From: Diplonema japonicum
Lineage: Eukaryota > Protista > Euglenozoa: Diplonemea
Length of the DNA: 64,000 nucleotides
Assembly: GCA_964019335.1 (NCBI GenBank)
Contig: OZ025655.1
Coordinates: forward strand, 796,771-860,770
Direction: 5' to 3'
The translations under genes were made by a program, and so were the position numbers. A model generated the notes under the pieces. It was not told where the DNA came from and did no database searches. It saw only the letters and a list, made by a program, of their open reading frames with translations. Within the stretch, counting starts at the first letter, position 1; each line of letters starts with the position of its first letter. This document shows, in pieces, positions 37,869 through 64,000 of this stretch.

Positions 37869-37974
37869 GTGGCCCTTTTTAACCATCTACCAACAGTGTT
37901 GTTACGAGAATGGGTTGCCCCCCGAGATTTTCGGGGGGGCACAGGGGGGCAAATCCAGGGGGGCAGGGGGGCAA

Positions 37975-40880: not shown

Positions 40881-41873
40881 CTCAGGGGACTCTTGGGACC
40901 AAAAAATTTCTTTGTGTTTTTTGTGTCACAAAGGCCCAAATTTAGGCTGGGGCTTGCATTTTTTTGGCACTTTTGGTTTCAAAGGTTCAAAAAAAGAGGT
41001 CCTAGGTTTGGGTGGGATCTGAGGCAAGGCTCACACTACCTTGTTGTGACTATGTAAAAAAAAAAAAAAAAAATTAAAAAAAAAATTAAAAAAATTTCAG
41101 GGGGTTTGGAGACCTGCTTTGAAAAAAATATTAAAAAGAGGCCTTTGTAAGAAAAGTACAATGCAAAAGAAAAAAAAAAAGTAAAAAAAGGGATGGGCAG
41201 TGTTGGTCAGTCCCGTCCTGTCCCCTAAAACGGAATACGGGCCTGGATGGGACTCACGGGACTCCATGGGACGGGACTCAACGGGACTCATGGGACTCAC
41301 AGGACTCTCCCCAACACTGTCATTATTTTTGATAGTTTTGCAACTTTTTTTTTTTTTTTTTTTTTTTCCAAAGGAAAAATGGGGGAAAAAAAAAGAGAAA
41401 AAAATCCTTGATTTTTTTTGACATACATGATGTGTTTACCTTTTCTTTTTTTTTTCCTTCTTTTTTTCTTGTCTTCTCACATTTTTTCGCACACCTAAAC
41501 CAAGCTGTTGTTTCTGCTTTCCACATCAAATGTTGTATTTGGATAGGCTTCTTCTACGTTCTGCATCGTTTCCTTAATCACCGTGACCGGGATGTAGCTT
41601 CTTCTGCATTCCACATCATGCCCTTAATCACTGCAGCCAGGTTGTAACTTCTTGCATTCCGTGTCATTTCCTTAACCACCACGGCCGGGTTGTAGCTTCT
41701 TCTGCATTCTGCGTCGTGTCCTTAATCACCATGGCCGAGTTGTAGCTTTTTGTGTTCCGTGTCATTTCCATAATCACAATGGCTGGACGGCCGGGTTGTA
41801 GCTTCTTCTGCGTTCTGTGTCGTGTCCTTAATGTGTGTGGTGTTCAGCTCAACCCCAGCCAGGGCACCCCAGG

Positions 41874-42132
41874 CAGTGTTGGTCCAGACCCTTGAGGGAC
41901 TCAGGGGACTCCAAGGGACAGGACAGGAGTCCCCTGAAATTTTCAGGGGTCTGGAGGGGACTCAGGGGACTCTTGGGACCAAAAAATTTCTTTGTGTTTT
42001 TTGTGTCACAAAGGCCCAAATTTAGGCTGGGGCTTGCATTTTTTTGGTACTTTTGGTTTCAAAGGTTCAAAAAAAGAGGTCCTAGGTTTGGGTGGGATGT
42101 GAGGCAAGGCTCATACTACCTTGTTGTGACTA

Positions 42133-42169
<37 letters not shown>

Positions 42170-42472
42170 AAAAAAATGTCAGGGGGTTTGGAGACCTGCT
42201 TTGAAAAAAATATTAAAAAGAGGCCTTTGTAAGAAAAGTACAATGCAAAAAAAAAAAAAAAAAAAAAGTAAAAAAAGGGTTGGATGGGCAATGTTGGCCA
42301 GACTGGTGGTCTGAGGTCTGGCCCACAAACCACCCCAACACTGCAAATTTTCGACACACATGATGTATGCAACACAGGGTGCACAACACAGCACGTGTTT
42401 TATAACATGTACCACTATGCTGCACAGGGAAAAGCAGGTGTCACAATGTGCACCTCCTGGTGCACAATATAC

Positions 42473-42503
<31 letters not shown>

Positions 42504-43621
42504 GAAGAAAAAAAAATTTTTATCTTCTTTTTCAGGTGGTGGGGATAACATGAAAATATAAGAAAAACATCAGATGTGTTGTTCGCTGTTGACCTCCTCA
42601 TCTGTCATCACTGAGCAAACCACACAAGCACAGAATCTTGGTTACCTGGGGTGCCCTGGCTGGGGTTGAGCTGAACACCACACACATTAAGGACACGACA
42701 CAGAACGCAGAAGAAGCTACAACCCGGCCGTCCAGCCATCGTGATTATGGAAATGACACGGAACACAAAAAGCTACAACTCGGCCACGGTGATTAAGGAC
42801 ACGACGCAGAATGCAGAAGAAGCTACAACCCGGCCGTGGTGGTTAAGGAAATGACACGGAATGCAAGAAGTTACAACCTGGCCAGTGATGGGTGAATCCT
42901 AATTAGGACTAGACCGGACTGGACCGGACCGGACCGGATCCAGCGTGAATTTCGACCCAATTATGCTGGACTGACCGGACTGACCAGACTGGACCGGACC
43001 GGACTGGACCAGACCGGACTGGACTGGACTGAACCGGACCGGACAAGATACAACCACAACACCCTTTTTTTTTTTGCTGCAGAGTTCAAACGTATAAACA
43101 GATGTCTACAAGAAAAGATGTTACACAGGTACTGAGAGACGACAACAACAACAACAACGAGAAACGAAGAAAGAAAAAAAAAAAAACTTTTATCTTCTTT
43201 TTCAGGTGGTGGGGATAACATGAAAATATAAGAAAAACATCAGATGTGTTCGCTGTTGACCTCCTCATCTGTCATCACCGAGCAAACCGCATGAGTGCAG
43301 AATCTTGGTTTCCTGGGGCACCCTGGCTAGGGTTGAGCTGAACACCGCACACATTAAGGACACGACACGGAACGCAGAAGAAGCTGTGGTGTACCCCCTG
43401 TAATCAAGTAGTCTTGTGCAGGTCCTTTAACTCATATATCTCTCACCACGGCCGGGTTGTAGCTTCTTCTGCATTCCACGTCGATCACCACAGCCGGGTT
43501 ACATCCAAATACAACATTTCCGGACATATGTACATACCTGCAGCTGCAGTGCACTGGAGTAGATAGGTGCAAATTGCTTGATGGAGCTGTGCATGTCTGT
43601 GGTACAAAGAAGAAGGAGAAG

Positions 43622-43653
<32 letters not shown>

Positions 43654-44539
43654 AAAAAAAAAATCATTGTCCAAAAATATTTGAAAAAAAAGTGTTTGCA
43701 GGTGTGTCAAAAATTGCAGAAAATTTTCGAGTCCGGTCAGTCCGGTCAGTCCGGCCGATCCGGTCAGTCTGGTCAGTCCGGTAAATTGGGTACACCGGAC
43801 CGGACCGGATTCACCCATCACTGACCTGGCTGCAGTGATTAAGGGCACGATGTGGAACGCAGAAGAAGCTACATCCCGGCCGCGGTGATTAAGGAAACGA
43901 TGCAGAACGCTGAAGAAGCTACAACTCGGCTGCGGTGCGCCCCCCTGTAATCAAGTAGACAGTTCTTGTGCAGGGTGCTGCCAACACCAGCCTCCTTTAA
44001 CTCATATATTTATCTCCTATATATTATTTTCAGGTGGGGGGGGGGACAACATGAAAATATGTGCAACAAACAGGCAGTGCGATGCAGGGGTTGAGCTGTA
44101 CATCGCACGCATTAGAGGCACGGCGCTGAAAGCAAGGAACCGATCTGTTTACACAGGTTGTATAAACATACACACCCTCCTCTTATACATATTATTTATT
44201 ATTTCCCCCCTTTTCTATTACATCCAAATACAACATTTGATGTGGAAAGCAGAAACAACAGCTTGGCTTAGGTGTGTGAAAAAATGTGAGAAGACAAGAA
44301 AAAAAGAAGGAAAAAAAAAAAAAAAAGGTAAACACATCATGTATGTCAAAAAAAATCAAGGATTTTTTTCTCTTTTTTTTTTCCCCATTTTTTTTTTTTT
44401 TTCCAAAGGGAAAAAAAAAAAAAAAAAAAAAAAAAGTTGCAAAACTATCAAAAATAATGACAGTGTTGGGGAGAGTCCCGTGAGTCCCGTCCAGGCCCAT
44501 ATTCCGTTTTAGGGGACGGGACGGGACTGACCAACACTG
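41874..44539. mobile_element. Non-autonomous TIR DNA transposon, family B (contains family A copy 2)
   Basis: TIR CAGTGTTGGTC / GACCAACACTG; 7-bp TSD CCCCAGG at 41867-41873 and 44540-44546; empty site present as the reverse complement at about 42631-42660. Further partial B copies start at 38709 (same orientation) and 41198 (inverted). Confidence 0.85.
42883..43823. mobile_element. Non-autonomous TIR DNA transposon, family A copy 2 (internally shorter)
   Basis: Same TIRs; 7-bp TSD ACCTGGC at 42876-42882 and 43824-43830; empty site present as the reverse complement at about 41631-41650. Confidence 0.9.
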
Positions 44540-44749
44540 CCCCAGGTAACCAAGATTCTGCGCTTGTGTGGTTTGCTCAGTGATGACAGATGAGGAGGTC
44601 AACAGTGAACAACACATCTGATGTTTTTCTTATATTTTCATGTTATCCCCACCACCTGAAAGAAGATAAAAGTTTTTTTTTTTTTTTTCTTTTTTTTTTT
44701 TTGTTTTACCAATAGTCAGCACCCCCATGCACACTGAAATTTTATTGTT

Positions 44750-44754
44750 TTTTT

Positions 44755-44796
<42 letters not shown>

Positions 44797-45409
44797 GCAA
44801 ATAACAATGGACCCACCCGTGCGAAACTAGGGGGAAGAAACTAAAGGGAGGAGGATATCGGGGTGCACGGCGGAGTGAACAAGGGACGGGAAAGGCTTTT
44901 TTTATTTACTTTCGTTCTTTCTCGTTCACTGGGAACCAAGGAGAGGTAGGGGGGGAAAAAGGTGAAAAGAAGTTCAAGAAAGTTGGGGGGGGTGGGAGGG
45001 CTATCGAAACTTGAGAGGAAGAGATGGAGGAGGGAAAAAGAATTAATTAATTTTTTTTTTTTTTTTAAAACCTAGAACCCATATCAAACAATCTTTTTCA
45101 TTTTCTTTCTTTTAAACTTTTAAACTAGGAAGATTAAAAATTTTAAGATAGAAAGAAAAATAAGAAAAAGAAACAACATAAAAAAAAAAAAAAAAAAAAA
45201 AAATTAATTAATTAAAAATAAAACTAAAAATAAAAATAAAACACAATTTAAGACTAAAACTAAAATTAAAAATAAAAATAAAAATAAGCTCGATGATTTA
45301 AAGGAAGCTGGTTGGGGCACCCTTTGACTAAAATAAATAAAAATAAAAGTAAAAATAGAGAGGGAGAAGAGAAGCAGACAATCAATTGCTTTCTTCTCTT
45401 TCTTTTTAT

Positions 45410-45443
<34 letters not shown>

Positions 45444-45498
45444 CCCCTTCCCTAAAGAACGTTTTGACCAAAACATTGTTAAGGGAAAACAAGGACTA

Positions 45499-45529
<31 letters not shown>

Positions 45530-48500
45530 TAAAATGCATGTATGGGGGAGCGCTTTAACGAAAGCATACTAACCCTGTTTCTCTCCCTCTCTTCTTTCTC
45601 TCTTTCTTTTTCTTTTTCTTTTTTTTTTTTTTTTTTTTTTTTTCTCCTTTGTAGTTTTCCCTATTTAACTATCCCTCTCAATTATACTCGCTGTCATCAA
45701 CCCCCTCCATCTGAAGGGGGATGGGGCTTCGGGGGGTCGCGCTTTGGGAGCCCCCCTCCGAAGATGATGGTGACAACCTCCCGACATAGGTGTCCATCTC
45801 CTCCTGCGCCTCCACCCCACGCGCAGGGGCGAGCTGTTTCCTGGACTTTTGGACCTCCACCGACTTCCCTTGTCCGTCCGGGGTTCCCACCATCGTCCCC
45901 TCGCTCCCCTCCCTCTGCCTCTTGTTTGCCCCTTCCTCCTGTTTCACCCGCCTCATCCCCGCCGCGAAATCCCTGTGTCTTTTCCGCGCCTCCAAGACCC
46001 TCTGGTACTCCGCCACGGGGACCACTTCCCCACCCTCCTCTTGCACCTTCACCAGGTGCAGGTTCCCTTCGGTGCCGTTCGCCATGTTGCTCGCGACTAT
46101 CCTCCACCTGAACACCTCGGGATCCACGTCGGGCTGGGTATTGAGAGTGTAGCTCACCCCCTCTTCCGCCCCCGTGGGGAAGATAGTCACCCTCCTGCCT
46201 CCAGGCCGGACCTCCTGTGCTTGCTCTATCCTCGCCACAAGGTCGTACAGCCTCCCCTCTCCCCCGTCCGACGTGGTGCACTCGTCGCGCAGCAGCTGGG
46301 AGTACTCTTCGCTCTCCTCCCCGCTGCACTCCTCCATCACTTGTTTCACCCTCTGGAGCCACTCCTGTGCGTCGAACTGGGTCTCCCCTTCCGCGACCAC
46401 ATCCCTGTGGTGCGTGGCGACGACGATGTACGGCTCCTTCGGGTCACGCAACTCCATCTCCGGAAGAATGGCTTGGCTTCCCTGTGCGTCCTCGGCTTCG
46501 ACCCCGTCGGCTGTGTGTGTTTGGATTGTGCCTGTCGTGGTCTCTGCCTGCTGGTCCTTCCCCTCGGTGCGCTGGTTAGCTGTTTGATTGTTTTCTGTGC
46601 CATCCACCGCCCCCTGGTTCCGGGCCCCTCCTTCCTCTCCGCTCCTCACAGGGCCAGCTTTTGTGTTTTGGATTGTGCCGCTCCCTGTCTCCTCCTCTCC
46701 CATCTCCGCGTCCACCCGCTCTGCCGCTGCTTTTGCTGCCGCTGACGCTGCTGCTACCACCGCCGCGGCCGCCAGGTTTGCGGTCCTCCTCTCTGCCTCC
46801 TCCTGGAACTTGTTCTCCGCCGCCTTCGCCGCGGCCAGAGCAGCCATCCCTGTCAGGTAGAACGCCGCCTCAGCTACCTCCTCCATTCCTGTAGCCGCAG
46901 CTTCCCGTTCCATCGCCTCCTGATCCTCCCGCTCCCTCCTCTCCTCCTGGGAGTGCTGCTCCGCTTCCGAGTCCAGTTCCATCTTCTCCACCAGAACCTT
47001 CCCCTTCCTAATGGCCGCCCTCGCCACGCCCTTGACCACGGCCGCCGACACTGCGGCCTTCATGTCGTTGAAGACCTCCACCCTGTGTCGTCGCGTCCTC
47101 TTCGCTGCTTCAGATGCCACCTCCTTCAAGAACCCCCTGGCCTGCCCTGCCAGACCCCCAAACGTTTCCACCGCAAAAGGGCGGAACTGCTTGTGAGCCT
47201 CCTTGCACGCTTCCATGTGCTCCTTGTTCGCAGCGTAGCCAGCAGTTTTTGAGGCCTGTTCCAGGTTGCCCACCGTCCGAGGGTGCACCACTGTCACATC
47301 CACCGCCAGCCCGTGGCCGTTTCCTTGTATCCCGCTCGGGAGGAGGATGTCCGCTGGCTTTGCCGATGAGCCAGCCATGATGTGCTTCTCCTCCCTGACC
47401 ACATCTATTGCCCCCTCCCTGCACTGGTCATACAGGACGTCCCTCACCCCGTTGTGGCGGTGTTGCGTGGTCCCTCCGTTCTTGCAGCACTGCGCGTGGT
47501 CTCCTCGGGCGTCCATTTCCTCCCCGCAGTTCAAGCACTGTGTGCCCTCTTGGTATAGAGGCGCCCCGAGCCACCACCTCGTCGCCACCTTGAACTCCTC
47601 ATCGTTCATCAGATTGCCATGGGTGAGGGGCCACCAGCCATGCCCCGGCTCCTTGCATCGCCGTCCCGCGGATCCTGGCCTTGTCTTCCTTCCCTGCCTC
47701 CCCCAGGAGGCCTTGCCATGCGCTGTCCTCGAGAATGAGGGACAGGAGCCTCTGCTGAGCTGCCTTCGGGTAGTCCTTCAAGAGCCCCACGCTCATCAGG
47801 GCCGCCTCGCCCGGGACCTTCTCGTTCAGCCACCTGCAGTGCTCCTCCCAGTCTGCCGCGGAATCCCAGTCGTACATGGGGTCGATCTCCTGGGGGATGT
47901 TCCGCGTCGCCACCAGGGATGCGATGTTCGCCACTCTCAGGTGCCCCTGGCAGCTCCTCAGGCCCAGCCCTCCCCTCCTTACTGCTAGGCTTGCTTGTTT
48001 CCACTGGTGCCCCTCCAGCTCCCCTCCCGCCAGGCACCCCATCGTCGATCTGACCAACTCGTCGAACCTCTGCATGGCGTCCCCAACATGGGTCTCAGGG
48101 ATGGTCCGCATGAAGTGCACCATCTTGCCGAAAGACTGGCAGCTGCGAAGGAGGGTGTACCCCGACTGTGCCCGCATCTTCGACTGCATCCGGAAGGTCT
48201 CCGCCAGCCTGTCGATCTTCCTGTGGGGGAAGGCGGTCGTGTACTCCGGTGTGCCGATCGGTGCCCCTAGCAGCTCGAAGTTGCCGGCGCGGGACACTTT
48301 GTCCTTTCTGAAGCCCTTGAAGCCCCACTCGGCTGGGTCGTTGGGCTTCTCCCCGCGTACCCAGATGAGTTCGCATTTCGCCGGCTTCACTGACAGGTGA
48401 ACATCTGCGCTCAACTCCGTCAGGATGTCCACCGCCTTCCTCACTTGCTCCACCTCGCCCGCGAAGACCCCATCGTCCAGGTAAAACTGACAGATGTCCA

Positions 48501-51500
48501 AGTCCGTCTGTTCCTTGACCTTTTCAATGATGGGTTGGAGGGCGAGGGAGAAGAAGAGGGGTCCCAGAGGATCCCCTTGCTGCACACCCTCCTTCGACTG
48601 CAGGACCTTCCCATCCCTGTACAGCAGGTTCGTGGGATTCTTGTAACAAAGTTGCGCCCATTTTTCCGCCCCAGCAGCCTTCGCCCTCACTTGTCGCAAG
48701 ATCCCGTGCCTGCTCATAGAATTGAAGGCGTTCGTGTAGTCCACCTTCACGATTACCCTGTTTCCCTCTCCCTGTTCCCTCTCCCTCTTCACGTATTGCC
48801 TAAAGGTGTGCACAGCCGCTTCCATGCCCGCCGGCACCGCCACCCCCAGTTGACCACCTTTCCTCAAGTACTCCGTGGCAACTGCAGGGGCTATTTTCAT
48901 GACCGCGATTGGGTGAACTCCCTTGTCCGGCTTCTTCAGCGGAGTAAGTGGACCGCCTGCTAGGAACGGGACGACGTCACTCGGGACCCCCCCCTGGACC
49001 ATCACATTGCACGTCCTTGTCAGCGACTCTGTGATCCCTTTCGCCTTCGCCCTGCCCTCCACAGCTGCCCGGAGATGTTCCACGCTGAGGCCCGAAGGGC
49101 CCGCCGACTTCCCCTTGCCCAGGTCCTGCAGGGTGCGGACACACCCCAGGGGTGTAAGCACTTCCGCCTCTTCCGGCCCCCCCAGGTCCAGCAGGCTCGG
49201 GTCATGCATTGGTCTCGGGTGTAGCGCCTCGAGTTTCCTCTCTGTGTCCTTGTTGTCGTCCGCTAGCCCTACCGCCGTCAAGGCCGCATTCGCCTGGGAG
49301 AATCTCATCTCCCTGGTCAGCGTCTCCGCTCTGCTCAGGCGTGTCTCCTCCGTCGGCTCCTTCGGAGGTTCATACTTAGGCTTCGGCAGGTCCTCCCACA
49401 GCTCCTTGTGTTCTCCCCTCAGCCACTGTGCGAGCTTGTTCTTGTTGTTCTTCTCGTTGGTCTTCCTCCTATCCTTCCCACCCTTGCGCTTCGAGAGGCA
49501 CACCTTGGGGAGCATCATGAGCATGACCCAGGACTCGTAGGTCTTCTCTTCCACTACCCTGTCCATGCATTGTTTGGGTGCCACACTCCAGTCCCTCCTC
49601 AGGCTGTCTGGGGCCCACTTCAGCACCCTTACTTTTGCCGACATCACTTCATCCAGGGAGGGGGGCTCCGACCTGTGCGGCGCCGCGCATCTCTCGGTGG
49701 GGGCGAACTCTCCCATCTCCTTCAGGCACTCCTCGTGCGCACCCTTCTCCGTGCTCGCCAGTCTCCCACAGACACACGGGCGCAGGCCTATGCCCCGCAG
49801 ATCCGCCTGTGATACCTCCGACTCCATCAGGTGATCGTTCAGGTGCTCCGTCAGGGTCGCGAACGACATGAAGGCCCTCCCCTTCATCCTTAGCGACCTC
49901 TCGCACCCATACACGGGGCAGTACAGGTCTGTCTTTGACTTCAACGGGGCGGCTTCCTCCGCTCTTCCGACCCCCGGGTCCACTCTTTTCTCTACTGGAT
50001 CCGATACCTTCATGAAGTCTTCGCTAGGTGCCGCTGCGGGTTGCACCCCTGGCGCCTGTGACCTCACGCTGTAGGCCCACCCTCTCATCCTTTCCATCTG
50101 TTGTGTGTCTGCCTCCACCGGGTCATAGTGCTCGCCGTTGAAGCCCATGATGATGTGCGACCCTGCCGTCCCCAGGTCCACACCCTCTGCCGCTATCTCC
50201 AGCACCGACCACTCGCCTCCCACCACCACTAGGATAGGCCCCTGCCAAAGATCCGAGGCCGCCACCAGACATACGTGGTCTCCCCACGACTTGTCCTTGC
50301 TCATCTCCCTGATGTATTCCTCCAGGCCCTGGCTGCCCTCCTCCATGAAAGGCGAGTACTTCCCAGCCTCGGCCCGCATGTGCTCCATCACTTCTGCCCT
50401 CACCTCTGCGTGCCTCTGTTCATCTCGGTGGAGGAAGTGGGCGATGGCTCGGAACATACAGTTCCCGTCTCCTGCCACTGGGACCAGTCTCGCGCCCGTG
50501 AACGATATGAGTGCATCCATTGTTGCTCTTCCGTCACCCTGGGGGCCTGGCTTGGCCTGCTGGGGCTTCTTCTTCTTCGACTTGGTTTTCCCGGCACCCG
50601 CCTGGTTCGAGCATTCCGGACACTTTTTGCTGCTAGCCGCGCATATTCCCGGGCAGCTCTTGCATATTCCAAAACCCATCTCCACTACCTGCTCCGCCGT
50701 GATGCCGTCTTGCTTCCGCCAGTGACCAGCGACATGGTACCGGAGTCCCCCCTTGGTCTTTGCCTTGAAGTTGCAGCTTTTGCACTCGAATGCTGCCCCT
50801 CCTCTCAAGGCACTCCCTGGGAGGGCGACACTGCGTCTCGAGCATGGGGGGGGCTCGGCGGTTGCTTTCAGCCCCTGGTGGAAGGGGAGGGGAAGGGACT
50901 GGGGAAACGGAGGAGGAGGGGGTAGTGGAGACGAGGGGGGGAAGTGAGGGTTAGAAGAGCTCCTGCCCCCAGCCTTGAATGAAGGTCTGCCAGGCCTTCT
51001 ACCCACCCACCTTCTCCTCGTTCTCCTCGTGGGGCGCGACCCTTCCCCTTGTGCACTTGAGTGGCCACCAAGGTCTGGGGCAGGGGCGAGGGTGACAAGG
51101 CAGCATAGAAGGTGGAACAGAATGGGGGGGGCAACCCTCCACCCACCGCTCTCCACTTCCCTTTCCGCCTGCCTTTCCTCCAACCTCCTGCGCCTCGTTC
51201 TTGCTTCCCTCCTGCCTGCGTTCTTCGCTTCCCTTCTTGCTCTCTTCCTCTCCTGCCTCCCTGCCTCTTCCCTGTCGGCCTCTGCTTCCCTGGCCGCCTG
51301 CCTCCTCCGCCTCCTCGCCTCCAGAGCAGCCTCCGTCCTCCTCCTCTTCCTCTCCTTCTTCTTCGGGGCTGCCTCCTTCTTCCTCCCAGTTCGCACACCC
51401 CTGCGCCTTTCCCTGGGTGGGTTCCACCGGGTCGCCCTGCCAGCCGTTTTCACCGTGTTTCCTCCCACTATTCCTTGGAGTGGGGGCAGGGCGTGCGTGG

Positions 51501-52410
51501 ACGGTGGGCGCGGTCCCTCTTGGGGTCTCCCCAAAGTCCTGAGGTAGACCTTATTCCCCATATGCACGTCTACATAGGGGGGAAGGGGTGCCTTCGCTGG
51601 GGCAGGTGCGGGTCGGGTGTGTGGCCTAGGGGCAGGGTCCCGGTGGCTCTCAGGGGGGATGGGTATGTCTCCTACAGGGGGTGGGGGTGGAGTTATTAGT
51701 GGGGGGGGGCTGGTGGGGGGCTGCACATGAGTGGGCTTGTCCTTTTCGGGGGAGGAGGGTGGGTTTGGTAGTGGGGGGGGTTGGTGGGGGGCTGTACAGG
51801 GGTAGGGAGGGGGCTGGTCTCACGCGGGTCCTCCGGATGGCAGGGGGTTGGGTCGGGGACACATCTGAGGGTGACGGAGACCCTCCGGCCCTCCATCGCT
51901 CCTGCCGGGATGGTGTGTGTCCACCCGTGCCTCGCTTCCCCCTCCAGCACCGCCCACGACCTGGGGGGGACGTGGAAGCGTGCTTCCTTCCCACCCTTTT
52001 GGAACACCATTTTCGTTGGTGTTCCGAACGAGAGGATCAGCATGATCCCCCCCAGCACCCGGTCGTCGGTGTGCTCTGCGATCCCCACCCCAGGCTGGTA
52101 GCTATTAACCAGCACCTGGTTGGGGACCCCCTCCAGCCCCGCCTCCTCCCACGCCCTCTTCACCCAGGGCACAACCCCCTCGGGGATGCCCCTGGTGGGC
52201 CTCACCACCCCCCTCTTCCTCCACTCCCAACCCCACTGCTGCACCCTTCGACCGGTGCCACAGTGGACGAGCTCCTCTCCCTCTTGGGTGAGGAGCTCCA
52301 CCGGGAGCTGGGGGGGGAACGGCCCTGTCCGCATTCCCCCCGGCCTTTCCCCCTTCTCGAGCCACCAGGGGGCGCCCTTCCTGCCGTCCTTCCTTTCCCC
52401 GTTTTTTCCC

Positions 52411-52443
<33 letters not shown>

Positions 52444-52560
52444 AAATGAAAAGAGAGAAAAGAGAAGAAAGAAGTTTTCTAAGTTTATTTCTTGTGGATT
52501 TCTATGTAGAAACAAATAACAACAAAAACAAAAACAACAACAAAAAAAAAGAAAAGAAAA
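44750..52560 (-). mobile_element. CRE/SLACS-clade non-LTR retrotransposon, element 1 (AlkB-OTU-RT-RLE), degenerate; outer boundaries approximate
   Basis: GC-rich coding body at 45678-52412. RT GVQQGDPLGPLFFS...YLDD; CCHC knuckle CLNC...HAQC; RHN..RD, KPADI, AVDVTV, FRPFAVETFGG RLE motifs; A-rich 3' flank on the minus strand. Confidence 0.85.
45678..52412 (-). pseudogene. Element 1 polyprotein broken into three ORFs (51696-52412 AlkB; 47599-51726 ZnF-OTU-RT; 45678-47609 RLE + tail)
   Basis: Frame changes fall in homopolymer runs (about 51700-51725 and G4 at 47627-47630). An in-frame loss of about 13 aa in the RT (PIAV^MKIA vs PIAVGESLRRLVGKAILDK in element 2) lies at about 48900. Confidence 0.75.
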
Positions 52561-52621
52561 AGGAAAATACAGGGGTTTCTAGGTGACTTTTTTTTTTTTT
52601 TCAGATGAACACAAACAACAA

Positions 52622-52676
52622 AACCAACGATTCTAAAGCTACAGTTTCTGTACTTTATTGTTTCTGTACTTTATTG
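52622..52676 (+). other. Complete 39-nt spliced-leader exon copy (52622-52660) plus 16-nt SL relic (52661-52676)
   Basis: AACCAACGATTCTAAAGCTACAGTTTCTGTACTTTATTG + TTTCTGTACTTTATTG. The 3' half CAGTTTCTGTACTTTATTG is the conserved kinetoplastid/diplonemid SL end, and the AACCAACG start is diplonemid-type. Not followed by GTATG, so not an SL RNA gene. Confidence 0.92.
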
Positions 52677-52817
52677 GTCGTCTGTGTTTTTGTTGGTGCC
52701 TGCTGCGTCCGCTCGGTGTCCGTTCGTCGTCGTCTGGGGGGGTTGTTTCGGCCCGGCCTGCCTGCCGTTTAGCAAAGGATCCCCTCCCCCCTCAACACAA
52801 AAAAAAAAAAAATAAAA

Positions 52818-55800
52818 ATGGACCCTAGACGAAACGTCGTCGGAGACCGCCGCCCGCAGGAGGAACGCCTACGAGAGACGCCGACCAAGCCGACCACCCG
52901 ACCAGACCGAAATCTGGCCGGGCAGTATGACCCCTCCCCTCCCCTTAGATCCCCTCTAGATGTCGTAAAAAATAATAAAAAACATAAAAAAATAGAACCA
53001 CCCGCAGCCAGCGCGCCCGCTCCTGATTCCGCAGCCACCACCGCCACCCGCCTGAAGACTGAGAGGGGGGAAAAAAAGAAAGAAGGAGGGTGGGTGCTCA
53101 CGGGAGGGGACCACCCCCCGGGCTTAAGAACAGGCCCAGCTCCCACCCACCCAGAGACCTTGCTCTCAGGGGGGTGGGAGTCCATTTCGGGGAACAAAGG
53201 GAGGGAAACCCTCCAATTTGGTTTCAGGTGGGTGGGTGCCCGTGCCAAAGTGCGCCGCACCACCCCGATCCCAGAGGGGGCCAGGGGTTGGGTGGCGGAG
53301 GTGGCCACCGCAGCGGGGCTGGGGATCACCCCAGACCAGGTGCTCGTAAATCGATACGAGCCTGGGTGTGGAATCGCCCACCACACCGACGACGTGAGGT
53401 TGGGACCAGTGGTCCTCATCCTCTCGTACGGTGCAGAGACCATGATGGTCCTGAAGAAGGGGTCCAGGGTATCGAAGTACCTGGTGCCTCCCTTCACCTG
53501 GGCCATTCTGGAGGGTGAGGCCCGCTACGAATGGACCCACCACATCCCTGAAGGGTGTTCTTCGGGCTCCAGGGTGTCGATCACCCTGTGGACGGTTGGC
53601 TGCCCCGTGCCCCTCCCCTCCCCCTCTGTGTCCTCTGTGGAGGAAATAGAAAAAAAAAAAACTGTGTTTGTGGGGAGAAGGAAAGAGAGTGCGAAGGAGG
53701 TGTCCCCGAGAGAGGGAGGCGCCCCTTCCCCCCCTTCCTCCGCTTCTTCTTGTTCTTCTTTCTCTTGTTTATCTGTCCCCCCTCTTGTAAACTCCCCCCT
53801 TGTAAACCCCCCCATTGTAGATTCCCCCCCCTTTGTTTCTTCCCAGGGGGAGGACAAGAAAAAAATAGGTAAGGGTGCACTCCCGAGAGAGGGTAGCGCC
53901 CCTTCCTCTGCTTCTTCTATCTCTGGATTATCTGTCTCCCCTCTTGTAAACTCCCCTTCCTCCGCTTCTTCTTTTTCTTCTTTCTCTTGTTTATCTGTCC
54001 CCCCTCTTGTAAATTCCCCCCTTGTAAACCCCCCCCTTGTAGATCCCCCCCCCTTTGTTCCCTCCCAGGAGGAGGATAAGAAAAAAAAAAAAGGGAAGGG
54101 TGCACTCCCGAGAGAGGGTAGTGCCCCTTCCTCTGCTTCTTCTATTTATGGTTTATCTGTCCCCCCTCTTGTAAATCCCCCCCTTGCAAACCCCCCCCAA
54201 GTGGATTCCCCCCCCTTTGTTTCCTCCCAGAAGGAGGATAAGAAGAAAAAAGAGAAGGGTGCTCTCCCTAGAGAGGTTAGCGCCCCTTCGGCCCCCCCAT
54301 TGTCACCCCCCCTTTACACCCGGATCCGAATGGGTCCGGGACTTTTTTTGAGGGTGGAAAATAAACAAAAAAACACACCCACACTCACTAACAGGAGGGG
54401 GGTCCTGGCCCCCGTTTCCACCACCCTCCAGGGGGTGGTGGGGGCGGTGGCCCAGGAGGAAAGATGGAAGCCGGAGCGCGCCCCGCAGGGGAGGAATGGA
54501 GGGGGAGTACCCTGGTTGGCCCCGGGACCCCGGAAGACGAGGCAGACGGTGACGAAGGGCCGGAGGAGGAGACACCGTAGCGAGGCCACCCTCCAAAGGC
54601 GCCACGAGGAGAGGGCCCAGGCCAGGGAGAAGGCTAGGGAAATCGCTGACAGGGAGCGGAGGAGGCTGCACCGCCAGAGAAGGGTCGAGAAGAGGAGGGA
54701 AAGGGAAGCCTGCAAGAAGAAGGGGTGCGGTCCCGCCCCTCCAGCTGTTGCAGCCCGGCTCATCGGGATAGCGGAAGCGGAGGAGAGGGCTGCGATGGCC
54801 AGGAGGGCCATCAGGTCGAGGGCCGGGAAACACCTTGCGAGGAAGAGGTGGGTGGCCAGGAGACGTTGGGGGCCCTATACCAGGGTGGTCTATCGGAGCC
54901 CCGTGCCCCCCCTCCCCTTAGAAGCCTCCTCGCTCAAAGGCGGAGCAACGCTTTCCCAACCCCCACCCCCGCCTCCGCCCCCAGGCGCAGCCGGAGGCCC
55001 CCCCGCCACCAGTAGGAGCACGGCCGGGGCTTCCCAAAGGACCGACGGAGTGTGGGAGTGCCTGCTGTGTGAGAAGGGTAAGAAAGAGCACTCGTCGAAG
55101 GCGGGCTTGCAGTACCACCTGTCGAAGACCCACGCCGGAGAGCTCACGCCAGAGAACGCGAAGGCGATGGGTTTCGCGATCTGCGGAGGGTGCAGCGTGC
55201 TGTTCACGGCGGGGAACAAGGAGTGGTGCGTGAATTGCCAGCCCAAGCCCGAGAAGGAGCCCTCCCGCCTCGTCCGTGGGATATCGGGCTCGTCTGTCAC
55301 CAGGGAGTCGATCCTGCACGAGGTGGGTGCCAAGGAGGAGGATGCTGGGGGCGGAGGGGATTGCTTGTTCCGCTCTCTGGCGGTGGTGCTGCTGGGGGAG
55401 AAGGAACGACACGGAGAGGTGAGGAGTCGGGTGGTCAACCACATAAGGGACAACAGGGGCAGGTTCGAGAGCTTTGTGGATCCAATCGGTTTTGAGGCCT
55501 ACATCCACTACATGGCAAAGCAAGGGGAGTGGGGGGACCACCTTTGTCTGCAGGCGGCGGTGGAGGTCTGGCAAAAGACGGTCGTGGTCGTGACCGGGGG
55601 TGACGCCCAGGTCTTGAAGCTCGGGGAGGCAAGGGAACCGGAGGATACGGTGGTGCTTGGCTTCACGGGATCCCACTACAGGCCTGTGTTGGTCTTGGAG
55701 GGCGGAAAGTCCACCCTGGTGGATTGGGCGGTGGAGGCGAGGCTAGCCCCCTCGGGGACCAGGCCCACCATCCTGGACCTCGCCCACCTCCTGATGCCGG

Positions 55801-58800
55801 AGTCCTCCATCAGGCCCAACGGACACCACATGAAGGATGCCCCACGACTGGACAGCAAGGTCAGGAGTTTCCAGTGCCCGGTGAGGGGGTGCGAGAGGTC
55901 GTCCCACATGGGAGGCCCGGCGATCTTGGGGTGGGAACTGCTGAAGTCCCACTTGAACGACCACCTGCTGGACGAGGAGGTACTCCCGCAGGAGCTGAAG
56001 AAGTTTGGCCTCAAGACCTGCGTGTGTGGGTCGGTGGTGGGCGAACAGGAGGCGGCTCACGTCAGGTGCATCGCCAGGTACAGCGCTCCTGGGGGTCCCG
56101 TGGATGTGAAGGCGGCCCCTAGCCGGGACGCACTTCCTTCTCTGGAGGAGGTGGCCACCCGGAAAGTGGGCCTCATGAAGCACATCCCCGTCCCGCTCCA
56201 AGGGTTGTGGAGTCTGGCGCTGAAGACGGCACTGGTGAGGGTGAAGCAGGAGAACTCCTACCTGTCGTGGGTGCTGCTCCTGATGCTTCCGAAGGCTTGC
56301 CTGGGCAGACGCAGGGGTGGAAAGGCACGTCGGAAGTCCGGGGAGAGCAGCGCCAAGCAGAAGTTGGAGGCCTGGATCAGAGGGGAGTACCAGCAGGTGT
56401 GGAACGGAGTCCCCCTATCGGAGAAGAGAGTCTCGAAGGATCCAGACGACGAATCCAGGCTGAAGAGAGGGGAGACGCTGTGCAGGGATGGGCGCTTCTC
56501 CAGAGCCAACGCAGCGCTAACTGCGGGAGGGTTGGCGGAGGACTCCACCGAGACCTTCGAGAAGCTCCTGGGCCTCCACCCTGAGGCATCGGTTGACCCC
56601 TCGGGGCTAGAACTGAATCCGGCTGACTCCTTCGAGGACGTCACGGCCGTCGACGTTCTGAGCATGGTCCGGGACTTTGACAAGGGGAAAGCGGCTGGGC
56701 CGACTGGGTTGAGCGCCCAACACCTGAAGGACGGGGTGGACGGCGTGGTGACGGAAGTAGGGGCCCTGGCGGCTCTCACCGAGGTGTGCAATATCATGGC
56801 CAGAGGTCAGACTCCGGCTGAGGTGGCACCGGTGCTACTAGGGGCGAGCTTGATTCCGCTGCGGAAACCGGACAGGGGAGTCCGTCCGATCGCCGTAGGA
56901 GAGAGCCTGAGACGACTTGTAGGGAAGGCAATCCTTGACAAGGAAGGGGCGGAAGTGGCCAAGTCCTACCTGAGGAAGGGGGGCCAGATCGGGGTGGCGG
57001 TCCCCGCGGGGATGGAGGCGGCTGTCCACGCGACAAGGCAGTACGTGGAGAAGGCGAAACAGGACGACGTATCCCGAGTGGCGATCAAGATAGACTACGC
57101 AAACGCCTTCAACACAATCAGCAGGTACGAGATGCTAAAGGAGGCGTGCGCGAAGGTTCCCAAGGGGTACAAGTGGGCCGAATCTTGCTACAGACACCCA
57201 TCCAAGCTGTTCCACGAGGGGACGGAGCTACTCTCGAGGGAGGGGGTCCAGCAGGGCGACCCGGTGGGTCCGTTGCTGTTCTCCCTCGCGCTGCAGCCAG
57301 TACTGGAGAAGATAAGGGCGGATACAAGTCTGGACCTCCAGTTCTTCTACCTCGATGACGGGTTCCTGGCCGGAGAGAGGGGACAGGTGGAGAAGGCCTA
57401 CCGCATCGTGGTAGAGGAGTCGGCGAAGCGAGGCCTGAAGGTGAAGCCGCAGAAGTGCGAGTTGATCTGGGTGTCTGGTGAGAAGCCGACCGACCCAGAA
57501 GAGTGGGGCTTCTCCGGTTTCTCCAAGGAGAAAATGAGCTCGGATGGGAACTTCAAGCTCCTGGGGACCCCCATAGGGGACGCGGAGTACACGAAGGCCT
57601 TCTTGGCAAAGAAGCTCGAGGCCCTGGGCAAGACCTTCGAGATGCAGAAGAAGATGAGGACCCAGTCGGGCTACGCCTTGGTGAAGAACTGCAGCTCGTA
57701 CAGCAAGATGGTCCACCTCATGCGCACGGTACCGCACACGCAGCTAGCGGGCCCCTTGACGGAATTCGACGGCCTGGTGAAGGGGGCGATGGAGCACCTT
57801 CTTGCCCGGGAGCTCGGGGAGAGGGAGTGGAGCCAGGCGAAGCTTGCGACGAGGAGGGGAGGGATGGGCCTTCGCAGCTGCAGCGAACACGCCCTAGTGG
57901 CGAACATGGCCTCGCTGGCGGCGACCCAGGAGCTGGCGTCGGAGATCCTGGGGGGGTACGACTGGGACGCTTCACTGGCGGGTGGCTGGGAGTGGGGGGT
58001 CGAGTGGTTCAACAGCCACCTCGCAGCCGACGATCCTGACAGGCTCTCCGTGGACCTGCTGCGAAACACCCCGAGGCTGTACCCTCAGAGGAAGATGTCG
58101 CAGATCCTCGAGGAGAAGTCCTGGGGTGCGCTGTTCGGGAGCTCCCCGGGTGGTAGGGACAAGGCCAGGTTGAACTCGCTGAAGGTTCACAAAGCAGGGG
58201 CTTGGCTGACGGCGATCACGGGCTTGAATAACGAACTAAAGAACGATGAGTTCAGGACGCTGACCAGCTGGCTCCTTGGCACCGCAGTCGGGTCCGAGGG
58301 GAAGTGCCCGATGTGCGGTGAGGACAACGACGCACTAGGCGACCATGCCATGGTTTGCAAGAGAGGTGCGGTCATGACGAAGAGGCACGACAGGGTGAGG
58401 GACATGTTGGTGAAGCACTGCTACAGCGGCGGGTTGCAAGCGGTGAAGGAGCAACAAGGCCTCCTGGGTGACGGGAGGAAGCCTGCTGACGTTTACCTCC
58501 CGATGGGGGTGGAAGGCGAGGGCCCTCTGGCCATCGACGTGACGGTGGTCCACCCGTGTGCGAGCGCCCACCTGGCGGCGGCAATGGCGGTTCCGGGGGC
58601 GGCTGCGGAGAAACAGGCGGAGTCGAAGCGGGCGAAGTACGCGAGCGACTGCGAGAGAGCCCGGATACGGTTCACCCCCTGTGCTCTGGAGACGTTTGGC
58701 GGGTTCGGGACCGACGCCAGGAGGGTGCTGAAGAGGATCGCGGCGGAGGTGGCGAAGAAGAGGCAGCGGGACGCGACGGAGGTCTATAGGACCATGACAG

Positions 58801-61785
58801 AGGAACTGAGCGTAGCCCTCATGAGAGAGGTGGCAGTGGAGACGAGGAGGAGGCACCCGATCAAAGAGACACAAGCACCGCCCGACCCACCCCCGGCCCC
58901 AGACATCCCCCCCGATGGCCCAGGAGACGAGGAAGCCCAGGCAGCGGGCGCCCCCCCACCCTCGACGGAGGACGCGTCAGGCACGACAAAAACCGAATCA
59001 GCCGACATGCCCGCTGGAGAGGAGGAAGTGTGCACGACGCAGGATGGCCCCAGCGCGATGGAGGAGGACCCGGCAGAGGACATGCCAGAGGAGCAGGCGG
59101 AGTTGCAGACAGGCCCTCTCTCATTGGGGGGAGGACTTCGGCTTGATGGAGGTGGAAAGCGAGGACGGGCTGGAGGGCGGTGCTCCGCAGGCGGACATCC
59201 CCGCCGCCCCCCCGGTCGTCGGAGGGACGGACTTGGCCCCCGCGGGGGAGGGGGGGACCCCTGACGCGACGGAGGTGAGGGAGCCCTGGGAGGCAGTGCC
59301 GCTACCAGACGTCTCCAGCCCCGACGCGATGGAGGATGATACGGCAGGGAGCTCGCTCGCAGAAGGGTGGGTCCCGCAGGCAGGCCCCGCTGCCCCGCGG
59401 GTGGACATCTCAGGTTCTAAAGAAAACGAAACAGCCGACTTGTCCATGGGGGAGGGAAGTCCTCAGGAGGAGGAGCCCGGCTTGATGGAGGAGGACACGG
59501 AAGAGAGCGGGGATGGGCAGGGCGGAGGGACGTCGCTGGGATACACCTCCACCCCGGCGGAGGAGGTGGGCCCGACCGACATGTCCGTGGAGGAGGAGGA
59601 GGAGAAGAGTGATTCGATAGAGGGTGGGGAACCCATGGAGGGGACGTCTCAGTCGGACGCCTCCGACTCCTCCTCGGAGGGCAACACTGGCACAGAAAAC
59701 ACCATCCAAGCCGCATTGCCTGAAGGAATGGAGGAGGAGGACGCGCAGGGAACGGACCGGATGGAGGTTGAGGGGGGCCTGACTCCGCCGCAGGCATCAG
59801 AGGGGAACACTGGCACAGAAAACACCATCCAAGCCGTATTGCCCGAAGGAATGGAGGAGGAGGGCTCGCAGGGGACGGTCCAGACGGAGGTTGAGGGGGG
59901 CCTAACCCCGCCACAGGCATCAGAGGGGGATGAGCCTATGGGGCCACTCCTGCTCGAGGGACGGGCTGAGGTAAGTGGAGAACCGAGCAACCACCAGTTT
60001 CCCCTCTCTCCGTCCCCCTCGGGAAGGGAGGACGACCAGATGTCGTGGCAGGGGCCGCAGGAAGGGGAGGGGGGGCCCTCACCGTCATCTTCGATGGAGG
60101 AAGTCCTCTCGTCCGCCCCAGAGTCCAGCAGCGAAGGCCCCGGGGTCGGAGAAGGGGACGCAGAGTTGCAGAGCGCCGGAGGGGAGGGAGGTTCGGAGTC
60201 ACCCGGGTCGGCCAGCCCGATGAGGGAGGACGAAGGGAGCCCCGATCTGGAAGCGGCAGAAGCCGGAGGCCCGCCAGCGGCGGTGAGCCAGGAGGTGGAG
60301 CGGACCGGGCTGGGCGCGTTCTCTAGGGAGCAGATCATGGCGATCCTGGGGGCGGATGTCTTCTCTCCTGTACCCGCGGGAGAAAGCGGCCTGGGGACGA
60401 CACAACCCTCACAGGGAGCGGCGGTGCTAACCCCAAGGGCCTCCCAGTCGGTGCTCGGAGGAGGGTGCGACTCCCCCATTGTGGCGGCGGTGTTGGAAGG
60501 GGCTGCCCGAGGCCCCCCTTCGTCGGAGGGGGACAGGGCAAGGCTTGGGGGAGACCGTGAGTCAGGCTCTCCGGAGGCCAGGAGCACGGGGAACACACCG
60601 TCCGTGACGCTTGTGGGAGCCATCGGGGAAAGCCTGGTGAGGAAGAGGGTCCCGTCCAACGAGGCCCTGTCCGCCCAGAGGGATCCCAAGGTACAGAGGC
60701 ACCCAGCGTTGCTGGACGTCAGGGGGCCTGCGGTCCGCCCCTGGTTCCCAGTCCAACTAGAGTCAGACGAAGTTTACGTGGCGCGGGTTCTCTTCGAGGC
60801 GGACGGGGAGGAGGAGTCCCCCATCCAGTCGGAAGGCGTCGAACCCCCTATCCAGGCGGAGGGTGGTGAGTCCCATGTCCGGGAGCTCCCCGCCCAGGAG
60901 GAGGAGGCTGGGTCTCCCACCCAGGCGGAGGTGGGTGAGTCCCCCACTCAGACGGAGGGCAGTGGATCCAGCATCCAGGTGGAGGATAGCGAATCCCCTA
61001 CTCAGTCGGAGGGTGATGAGTCCCACATCCAGGAGGAAGGAGGGGAGTCCCCTGCCCAGGCGGAAGGTGAAGCTAATGAGCCCCCCATCCAGACGGGAGC
61101 GGCGGTGGAGGACGGGACCGCGCCCGAGCCCCTCGAGATTGATTCGCCGGAGGTCAGTGGGAACAGGGGTCTGGCGAGGAAGAGGGTGCCCTCGAATGAG
61201 GCTCAGTCCGCCCAGCGGACCCCAAAAGTGAAGAAGGGTCGCGGCCAGCTGGACGTAAGAGAATCGAGCCTGGCCGCTGGCATGCGCGTGCTGTTCGGAG
61301 CGGTTCCGCCCCCTTCCCTGACCCCCTTGGCCGTGGGTAGCAGGCCGCCGCAGGAGGAAGGCGAAACGGCGCAATCTCCCATTCCGGGGGCGAGCGGTGC
61401 AGGGCTCTACTCTCCAGAGGCGAGGTTCCCGGAGGCGCCCGTGGTGTCCATGGCCGCGGACCTGTGCGAGTCGGACGGGATGGAGGCACATTCGGCCCCC
61501 TCCGGTGTGGACAGAGAGCCTTCGCCCGCTCGTCCGTCGCAGTCTCCCGTGCTGGGGGCTGAAGGCGGGGGGCGCCTCTCTCCGGAGGTCAGTACCCCAG
61601 AAACCTCCAACCCCGATGTCCGGGTAGAGGGCGGGGAAAAGGTCGCCAGAAAAAGGGTACCTTCCCACGAGACCCAGTCGGCCCAACGCGCCGCTAAGGT
61701 CGGGAAGGGCCCTGTCCAACGAGATGTGAGGGGGCCCCAGGGTGGTCGATCCACCCCCCTGGGCTCGCAAGGGCCCAGGGCTTGA
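52818..61785 (+). CDS. Element 2 polyprotein: AlkB (~53210-53590), Ser/Pro repeats, Arg-rich region, LKGG|A, ZnF, OTU (~55320-55690), ZnF, RT (~56470-57580), CCHC+RLE (~58305-58740), acidic tail; one frameshift near 59110-59135
   Basis: The 2148-aa ORF 52818-59264 continues compositionally into the acidic 58915-61785 frame. AlkB NRYEPGCGIAHHTD...WTH...RVSITL; OTU GDCLFRSL...WGDH...GSHY. Confidence 0.85.
53700..54290 (+). repeat. In-frame tandem repeats inside the element 2 ORF
   Basis: About three copies of PREG(G/S)APS..SS...PPLVN.PL.NPP.VD.PPFV.SQ.EDKKK. Confidence 0.85.
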
Positions 61786-62032: not shown

Positions 62033-63310
62033 CCATTACAACAAAACGACAAAGGGGAAAAAAAAAAAAAAAGAAAGTTAGCAAAAGAAAAAAAAAAGGG
62101 GACCGGGAGTTTTCCCCCTGAAGTTCCTTTGTTAAAACATGTTTGCTGTTGGGTTTCCGTTTCTTTTCTTTTTGGTTTTACTAGGAGTTTTCCTTCTACA
62201 GATTGTTTGCTGATGGTTTTGAGTTGATTCTTTTTTATTTTTTATCTTATGGTTTAACTAGAAGTTTTCCTTCTACAGCTTGTTCGCTGACGGGTGGGTT
62301 TATCAGGCGGGCTTCCATAGCTGGTGACCTATGGAAGCCTTCCCAAATTTTTTCTTTTTTTCAGGCCGGGCTGGGGAAGGACGGCAAGACCACCAACGGA
62401 GGAGAAACCGCTGCAGAAAGGGGAAAGGTGCAGGAAGACGAAGAGGACGAGAGGGCGTCTCACAAAGACTCCCTTCAATTCATATATCTTTTATTTTCTT
62501 TTTATTTTTCTTTTCTTTATTTTCTTTCTCCCAACCCTACCCCCCCTCGAAAAAAAAAAGAAAAGAAAAGAAAAGATTCATTCCTCCCTAGTTTATTATA
62601 TTTTGCATCAGGTTCGCCGAGAAAATAAAAGGAAAAACAAGGAAAGAGAACGGCAACCAAATTTTAAATTTTTATTTTATCATCAAAGGAGGTTTGAAAA
62701 AGAGAAAAATTAAAGAGAAGAAAGAGGCCTTTTTCTCCTCTATCGATAAGTGATTCACGAACTCGAATCTTTATCACCACTTTTTTGTGCATGCCAGATT
62801 TTTTTTTTCTCCCGCCTTGTTAGAGAAGTTTTAATTTACTAGTAAAAAAATAAAAAAAGTGAAAAGAGGAGTAGAAGACGATCCGGTGGGGGGCATGGGA
62901 ACCATAAACCGTGTCTTCCATCGCGATCGGCAAGGCGGGGGCTTTTCCGTCCCATGGGTGAAAAGAGGCGGATAAAACCACTATTCCGGACCCCCCCCAA
63001 CACTGAGCATGCACTTTTTCCCCCATACATACCTCTCTTGTTTATCAAAATATCACCAATTTTACGGCGGACGCCAAGAAAAAAAAAAGCCAAGGAGAAG
63101 GAGTTTAGGGAAATAACAAAAGACCTACGGCCCCAAGGAAGGCGGTGAAAACAGCCATGGTGGGCCAGCCCTGGCAGACAGGGAGCCTGAACACCAAGAA
63201 CACCGCGGAGCCAAATTTGCATCCGGAATTTTCGGTTTTCAAACTTACAAAAACCCCCTGTAGGCATCTGCGTCCGTCCAGCCCCATTTTGGCACCCCTT
63301 TTGGGTGCGG

Positions 63311-63361
<51 letters not shown>

Positions 63362-63416
63362 AAGGAAAGAAAAGGAAAATAAACAAGTCTACTTTTTTTT
63401 TTTTTTTTTTTTTTTT

Positions 63417-63802
63417 CTAATGGGGGCTTGCCGACTTTGACTTGACCGAAGCTGTCAGGGGTCAACGCAGTTGTGTCGGGCTTTTCGCGGCCTGGGGTAG
63501 GGGGCCGGGGGTGAGGCTGCTCGGCTGGCGTCTGATATGAGACGCTGGTGGGGCTGAGCGCCGGGACTTGGGGGTGGGAGGAAGGAGAAAAACACCAGAC
63601 AGCGCGCACAGCAGCAACACAGCACCGACGAACCACACAGCAACACCACACCCACAGCGTTCGACTGCCTGCCGCCTATTTTTTTCTAAGGGAGTTTGCC
63701 GACTTTGACTTGACCGAAGTTGTCAGGGGTCAACACAGTTGTGTCGGGCTTTTCGCGGCCTGGAGTAGGGGGCCGGGTGAGGCTGCTCAGCTGGCGTCTG
63801 AT
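63417..63802. repeat. ~118-bp direct repeat (63417-63536 and 63686-63802)
   Basis: CTAA.GG.G.TTGCCGACTTTGACTTGACCGAAG...GGCGTCTGAT occurs twice with few differences, each copy preceded by a T run. Confidence 0.9.
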
Positions 63803-64000
63803 GCAAACCCGCAAACCCGCAAACCCGCAAACCCGCAAACCCGCAAACCCGCAAACCCGCAAACCCGCAAACCCGCAAACCCGCAAACCCGCAAACCCGC
63901 AAACCCGCAAACCCGCAAACCCGCAAACCCGCAAACCCGCAAACCCGCAAACCCGCAAACCCGCAAACCCGCAAACCCGCAAACCCGCAAACCCGCAAAC
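63803..64000 (+). repeat. Perfect (AAACCCGC)n / (TTTGCGGG)n telomere-like array, about 25 units, running off the window
   Basis: Direct observation; no variant units. Confidence 0.97.

Follow-up and report, generated by a model that had tools for sequence, protein, structure and literature searches.

AlkB and OTU domains in two CRE/SLACS-like LINE families of Diplonema japonicum

Introduction

Why would a retrotransposon carry an AlkB-type dioxygenase and an OTU protease ahead of its reverse transcriptase (RT)? The question is raised by a stretch of 64,000 nucleotides from Diplonema japonicum (contig OZ025655.1), hereafter the window, in which a first-pass annotation had placed two divergent families of CRE-clade retrotransposon, each combining both domains with an RT and a restriction-like endonuclease (RLE). 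AlkB also occurs in replicases of plant RNA viruses of the Alpha- and Betaflexiviridae and Closteroviridae, in some of them together with OTU, and the annotation proposed a virus-like accessory module of old and retained architecture, whose AlkB would remove RT-blocking or silencing methyl marks from element RNA while its OTU processed the polyprotein or countered ubiquitin-mediated degradation.

Two LINEs with a common domain order

Two CRE/SLACS-like LINEs lie head to head in the window, E1 on the minus strand and E2 on the plus strand (Table 1). AlkB, OTU, RT, a CCHC knuckle and an RLE were found in both, and the common domain order proposed for them is borne out by Pfam matches and motif positions; two zinc fingers, the YLDD box, the knuckle and the RLE motif are each seen in E1 and in E2. 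Both elements extend beyond the 45678..61785 originally assigned to them, and in the window E1 is spread over three frames and the E2 tail lies in a second one. The RT was matched by RVT_1 above the Pfam cut-off in both (E 6.8e-15 in E1, 6e-19 in E2), the nearest solved RT structure being that of R2.

By tblastn the elements are 39-49% identical, depending on the domain: 49% over AlkB (168 aa), 43% over the segment from zinc finger through OTU and RT to the thumb (ZnF-OTU-RT-thumb; 1097 aa) and 39% over CCHC-RLE (211 aa). The linker between AlkB and ZnF-OTU-RT aligned poorly. Judged by identity and motifs, AlkB is as well kept as ZnF-OTU-RT and appears to have been retained since E1 and E2 split. 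E2 also contains in-frame internal repeats, at 53731-54289 in the Pro/Ser linker (about 225/162 nt) and at 59674-59928 in the tail (123 nt); one 225-nt unit of the linker repeat is absent from the X1 contig.

Table 1. Positions of the two elements and their features in the 64,000-nt window.
Feature	Position	Strand	Basis or remark
Element E1, decayed copy	45644..52412	-	three frames here; 5' end uncertain
E1 frame 1	52412-51696	-	ORF list; AlkB
E1 frame 2	51819-47599	-	ORF list; OTU and RVT_1
E1 frame 3	47777-45678	-	ORF list; CCHC and RLE motifs
E1 AlkB-type 2OG-Fe(II) dioxygenase	51855..52364	-	HxD...H present, as are the two Arg of the C-terminal motif; Pfam, PDB match, alignment
E1 LxGG motif, candidate protease site	50797..50808	-	just before zinc finger 1
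E1 zinc finger 1 and OTU	50125..50784	-	Pfam, alignment
E1 zinc finger 2, RT (YLDD) and thumb	47602..49920	-	36 nt missing at 48903 here
E1 CCHC knuckle and restriction-like endonuclease	47022..47537	-	followed by acidic tail to 45678
E1 3' terminal 15-nt motif and poly(A)	45620..45658	-	13 of 15 nt common with E2 3' end
Element E2	52622 to about 62072	+	from 5' leader to likely 3' poly(A)
39-nt presumed spliced-leader exon, E2 5' end	52622..52660	+	length, abundance, unrelated continuations
16-nt relict leader	52661..52676	+	identical to the part of the leader that follows the internal AG
E2 coding region	52818..61785	+	frameshift at 59126 in window copy
E2 first frame	52818-59264	+	AlkB, OTU, RVT_1; acidic tail in second frame, to 61785
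E2 AlkB	53091..53594	+	last motif Arg is Trp here
E2 LxGG motif, candidate protease site	54933..54944	+	Arg-rich segment before it, zinc finger 1 after it
E2 zinc finger 1 and OTU	55059..55690	+	Pfam
E2 zinc finger 2, RT (YLDD) and thumb	55875..58260	+	Pfam, structure match
E2 CCHC knuckle and restriction-like endonuclease	58305..58850	+	followed by long acidic tail with no Pfam match
E2 likely 3' terminal motif and poly(A)	62043..62072	+	13 of 15 nt common with E1

Reading frames and other copies in public sequencing runs

E2 or part of it was present in 14 of the 17 public runs listed, with no RNA run among the holders, and the nucleotides that join the frames were read from contigs of four runs belonging to two studies. 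E1 contigs add one nucleotide behind 51775 and two behind 47626 in all four runs, and a further 36 nt at 48903, shown for two of the four; E2 contigs add two nucleotides behind 59126 in three runs, the fourth having no visible cover. Because the added nucleotides join the frames arithmetically, each family is likely to consist of one ORF, which we infer to be about 2,260 aa long in E1 and about 2,990 aa in E2. A single X1 contig of 6,443 nt runs from the AlkB of E2 into its tail and includes the frame-joining 2 nt; in E1 the join between AlkB and the linker is bridged by one contig, and no contig spans the full element.

Both window copies are broken. Assembly error was weighed as the source of the breaks in E1, but the differences between window E1 and the run contigs (among 40 of 183 rows) are non-synonymous in 29 of 39 cases and mostly transitions, which fits a dead, drifting copy. 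Low-depth X1 and X2 contigs contain AlkB copies with frame-breaking deletions; either of these two runs may itself be the source of the window. E1 has less contig depth at its AlkB end than at its 3' end, which is compatible with 5' truncation and is not a copy count.

The AlkB domain

AlkB enzymes share an RxxxxxR motif alongside HxD...H. Checked against the Pfam profile 2OG-FeII_Oxy_2 (PF13532), both elements score above the cut-off of 31.2 bits, at 43.3 bits for E1 (E 6.1e-11, first frame) and 36.2 bits for E2 (E 9.6e-9, first frame). The Fe ligands are present in both, in agreement with the first-pass annotation; the sequence RVSITLW that it quoted for an intact E2 motif, however, ends in Trp (53589-53591) at the position of the final conserved Arg. 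All three runs with coverage here, each from a different study, keep the Arg (one at depth 2.2). HxD...H is likewise given as the family motif in the available part of PMC9289625.

Among PDB entries the element AlkB is nearest by sequence to human ABH8 (E 1.3e-8 for E1), an enzyme that modifies tRNA according to the entry's title, followed by ALKBH6 and Schizosaccharomyces pombe Ofd2; Caenorhabditis elegans NMAD-1 and ALKBH5 are also among the matches, ALKBH5 far lower (E 0.13). The matches to ABH8 and ALKBH6 are 21-23% identical, too low for assignment to a subfamily. A structure model built from the two sequences (pLDDT 61, as against 44 for a single-sequence fold) retrieved the AlkB fold from the PDB with Foldseek at E 4e-7, again with ABH8 and ALKBH6 first, and at the level of this model the fold is confirmed. 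With these two as nearest solved relatives, there is no pointer to a simple repair substrate.

Weak searches for further relatives of this AlkB returned none among 533 candidate long proteins, none among 7,993 scored proteins longer than the domain (a crowded search), and none in viral, metagenome and prokaryote contigs and phages. Clustering by protein features put the domain near clusters of mostly viral members, which is no evidence of origin; by the same clustering the whole protein fell near RVT_1 clusters only, all below 0.9.

The OTU domain and a candidate cleavage site

The OTU domain is matched by PF02338 at 57.4 bits in E1 (E 2.8e-15) and 42.7 bits in E2 (E 1e-10), against a cut-off of 23.3, and alignment to OTUD3 places the catalytic Cys and His in both, so that the Cys/His pair originally reported holds up. 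The third residue of the OTU triad is usually Asp or Asn, two places after the catalytic His; this position is Asp in E1 and Arg in the window copy of E2.

For the proposed processing of the polyprotein by OTU, a candidate site lies between AlkB and OTU-RT in both elements, a first and indirect sign in favor of that proposal. The motif, LxGG, resembles the C-terminus of ubiquitin. Among the seven OTU-bearing families with upstream sequence (an eighth begins inside the OTU), six have L/M-x-G-G after the Arg-rich part and ahead of the ZnF/OTU, four of them in the strict LxGG form, and only P0158 has none. We note that the motif is short and was chosen post hoc, that shuffled sequences contain it at a frequency of 0.08-0.36 per family, that the families are related, and that its offset differs among them.

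Relatives and the order in which the domains were acquired

The E2 residues from the zinc finger to the RLE were used as query against 1.84 billion representatives, giving 17,763 matches of which the best 150 were taken. Within this best 150, the top relative comes from Diplonema papillatum and carries the annotation 'SLACS 132 kDa' (38% identity), a fragment from D. ambulator reaches 48% identity, and six relatives carry OTU. E1 and E2 show the traits of CRE-type elements, namely an RT followed by a CCHC knuckle and RLE, N-terminal zinc fingers, a 3' poly(A) and, as inferred from contigs, a single ORF; we call them CRE/SLACS-like on this architecture and on the automatic 'SLACS' label of their neighbors, the tree containing no named CRE-clade reference RT. 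In that tree (FastTree, 151 RT segments, midpoint root, with shorter matches such as P0158 omitted), E1 and E2 are sisters with support 1.0, inside a ten-member clade (support 0.947) in which seven members carry OTU.

Among the sequences examined AlkB, in contrast to OTU, was confined to E1 and E2. Pfam detected it in none of 57 related proteins, a two-sequence profile in none of 269 proteins and 80 loci, and Pfam again in none of 37 upstream frames, these coming from 14 of 15 loci chosen among the 80; P0112 was too long for the Pfam searches and was omitted. Most relatives are too short upstream to reveal an AlkB, and the three OTU bearers with about enough room (P0214, P0158 and P0222) are without it. 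OTU thus occurs in relatives that have no AlkB, the D. papillatum family examined included, which makes AlkB dispensable for this RT group. Together with the sister position of E1 and E2, it also suggests that OTU is the older of the two and that AlkB was likely gained once, after OTU, in the common ancestor of E1 and E2. The earlier view of an old and retained architecture therefore stands in that the architecture has been kept since the two families split, but sister elements represent one acquisition and not two independent cases.

Ubiquitin-family proteases are a common cargo in this RT group. Three related RT proteins have a C-terminal USP/UCH domain (P0210, P0214 from D. papillatum, and P0189), with OTU and USP occurring together in P0214, and Ulp1 is found on two proteins (P0143, P0129) and one locus (L033:6247-7503). 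Other cargo on related RTs comprises Prim-Pol (P0061, P0074), MLLE (P0066, P0070), RFX with PHD (P0179) and RNase H (P0075), and a 2A-like motif is present in P0001, P0060 and P0066.

The idea of a virus-like AlkB+OTU module was not supported by these comparisons. OTU occurs alone in relatives and would predate AlkB; its nearest matches are cellular OTUD3/5/1 (E 2e-8 to 7e-7), with viral OTUs trailing at E 5e-4 or worse; and the AlkB, nearest to ABH8 and ALKBH6, is only 12-19% identical to those of plant RNA virus replicases in structure alignments, giant-virus and a few other AlkBs reaching 23-26% in comparisons with viral models. The likeness to the plant-virus replicases, in which AlkB is likewise part of an RNA-copying polyprotein (PMC9289625, in the part available), would accordingly reflect convergence rather than a shared module.

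A spliced leader and its relict at the 5' end of E2

E2 begins with a 39-nt segment that we take to be the euglenozoan spliced leader. Summed contig depth is about 45,000-58,000 over this segment, as against 250-2,500 on the adjoining E2, and in each of two runs there are five contigs that depart from E2 behind 52660 and go on into different sequence. The spliced-leader exon of D. papillatum is also 39 nt long, according to the accessible part of PMC10161547; a diplonemid leader sequence was not found in the literature searched, and Rfam gave no match for the segment or elsewhere in the window, which also has no tRNA. Behind the leader stands a 16-nt relict, which is absent from E2 contigs of three runs, where the leader is joined straight to the element. 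A full leader followed by a truncated one is the signature described for repeated trans-splicing and retroposition (PMC3229502, text seen in part), and E2 was likely copied from trans-spliced RNA, twice.

It could be argued instead that the leader reflects targeted insertion into spliced-leader genes, as practiced by CRE, SLACS and CZAR. The closest named relative is labeled 'SLACS 132 kDa', trypanosomatid CRE elements do insert in SL RNA genes (PMC12278014, available portion), and the direct junction of leader and element in the contigs of three runs would suit such an origin. However, the leader has a single match in the window, at the 5' end of E2, with none behind either poly(A), and the 16-nt repeat, in tandem at the 5' end, takes up the leader sequence from the position right after the internal AG, so that we consider targeted insertion unlikely. 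By eye, no target-site duplication was recognized at the ends of E1 or E2. A short leader-like fragment lies near 38331-38346.

What AlkB and OTU may do for the element

We suggest, with a probability of roughly one in two, that AlkB acts in cis, clearing the RNA of its own element of RT-blocking methyl groups, and that OTU cuts the polyprotein at the LxGG site, removes ubiquitin, or does both. Host read-through transcription would supply the element RNA, which would be trans-spliced as mRNAs are. AlkB would bind this RNA and strip the pairing-face methyls that stall the RT on a template of 7-9 kb, and target-primed reverse transcription would then copy the RNA up to the first base of the leader, the copied leader providing a splice acceptor for the next round. 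Cleavage by OTU at an LxGG-type site would free AlkB together with the Arg-rich piece, which may act like an ORF1 protein, and OTU may in addition remove ubiquitin. There is precedent for such an activity in the AlkB of an orchid Gypsy element, an RNA-binding enzyme that removes the methyl group of m6A in vitro, and in plant-virus AlkBs, which demethylate RNA (both from the available part of PMC9289625). That AlkB was kept at 49% with intact motifs while the linker eroded counts for a role in the element.

A first alternative is that AlkB is an anti-silencing eraser, acting on m6A in element RNA or 6mA in DNA, and that OTU only shields the protein from degradation. The orchid enzyme is indeed an m6A demethylase (PMC9289625, as far as available), NMAD-1 and ALKBH5 figure among the matches of the element AlkB, and the USP/UCH and Ulp1 domains on relatives suggest repeated selection for ubiquitin-family proteases. 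ALKBH5, however, trails ABH8 widely (E 0.13 as against 1.3e-8), and human L1 is promoted by m6A and suppressed by ALKBH5 (PMC7873242, in the part at hand), which makes the earlier proposal of m6A as a silencing mark doubtful and this alternative, on balance, fairly unlikely.

The matches to ABH8 and ALKBH6, first by both sequence and structure, and the Arg-rich segment adjoining AlkB might rather point to a hydroxylase or to a non-catalytic, ABH8-like RNA-binding module acting on translation or RNP assembly. We regard this as distinctly unlikely: both families retain every Fe and 2OG ligand, a point in favor of catalysis, and the identities do not reach the level of a subfamily. A passenger AlkB, captured but of no use to the element, is very improbable, for although it is absent from all relatives examined, decayed AlkB copies exist and selection is judged from identity and motif retention, the domain came through at 49% identity and with intact motifs a split that eroded the neighboring linker.

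Returning to demethylation in cis, the idea can be taken further. A hypermethylated spliced-leader cap is known from trypanosomes. One may imagine a LINE lineage adapted to the spliced leader as a whole, in which OTU self-cleaves at a ubiquitin-mimicking LxGG, the AlkB-basic protein strips RNA methyls including those of the hypermethylated leader cap, and the RT proceeds to the first leader base, so that each copy would carry its own trans-splice acceptor and need no promoter; taken as a package this is speculative and quite improbable.

Relation to known systems

The CRE clade of trypanosomatids (SLACS, CZAR, CRE1/2; PMC12278014, in part) resembles E1 and E2 in its single ORF, zinc fingers, RT, RLE and poly(A), and differs in that E1 and E2 have AlkB at the N-terminus and that the window copies are not flanked by leader on both sides; AlkB and OTU are not mentioned in the available part of that mobilome paper. 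Closer still is the D. papillatum 'SLACS 132 kDa' family (KAJ9436461.1, KAJ9439003.1), with the same ZnF-OTU-ZnF-RT order, but with AlkB in none of 14 members examined by the two-sequence profile or of seven examined by Pfam, and with a C-terminal USP/UCH where E1 and E2 have an unmatched tail. The genome paper of that species, in the part available, mentions SLACS RTs and AlkB genes separately (PMC10161547).

In the literature searched, AlkB on a transposon was found only in the orchid LTR family and OTU only on DNA transposons. The Phalaenopsis Ty3/Gypsy element also carries an AlkB-family dioxygenase, but is an LTR element whose ALKBH5-like enzyme occupies a separate ORF (PMC9289625, portion available), whereas E1 and E2 are LINEs with an ABH8/ALKBH6-nearest AlkB in frame with the RT, and with OTU in addition. 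Ginger1, Helitron/Helentron and Mutator elements with OTU or Ulp1 share the fusion of a ubiquitin-family protease to a mobile-element enzyme, but are DNA transposons that, in the parts available of PMC2836005 and PMC6431247, have neither AlkB nor RT. Dinoflagellate retrogenes show, as E2 does, a full leader and then a leader cut at its internal AG (PMC3229502, PMC6050394, both in part), and in E2 this arrangement stands on an autonomous retrotransposon. An RLE-type LINE with AlkB and OTU, which the first-pass annotation held to be undescribed, was likewise not found in the literature searched, Repbase and Dfam lying outside that search and possibly holding an entry. What these elements would add is the full and relict leader with which E2 begins and the candidate LxGG between AlkB and OTU-RT.

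If AlkB does act on element RNA, LINEs join some RNA viruses and one LTR family in having evolved an RNA de-modification enzyme of their own, and the notion that base methylation limits long target-primed reverse transcription becomes testable; an RT fused to a demethylase would also be of practical interest for copying modified RNA. OTU with its candidate LxGG would allow a single-ORF LINE to produce an ORF1-like protein, and the leader with its relict would show a retrotransposon cycling in a polycistronic, trans-splicing genome.

Surroundings of the elements

An 8-mer is repeated perfectly in tandem, 24.8 times, over 63803-64000, up to the end of the window; this array is preceded by two repeats of about 127 nt (63410-63536 and 63679-63802). 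Neither window copy touches the array. One X3 contig, however, joins E1 at 46921 to the 8-mer repeat, and the D. papillatum protein P0052 ends in the translated repeat; in all three cases the C-rich strand follows unique DNA. The array may be either telomere-like or a satellite.

On the other side, a repeat-rich non-coding stretch (about 37,100-45,500) separates the two elements from host genes on the minus strand. It includes a near-perfect palindrome of 385 bp (93%) at 37484-37868, preceded by a run of 26 G and bordering the gene cluster, and between 38300 and 45500 a mosaic of short, non-coding dispersed repeats in both orientations, with 50-nt units, 5- and 9-nt tandem repeats and A runs. 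The host cluster itself (784-37026, minus strand) has few, short GT-AG introns and encodes a dynein heavy chain, a class I DAHP-synthase family protein, a Na/H exchanger with a cNMP domain, an MFS transporter, an EF-hand/DUSP/USP protein and a Kelch protein.
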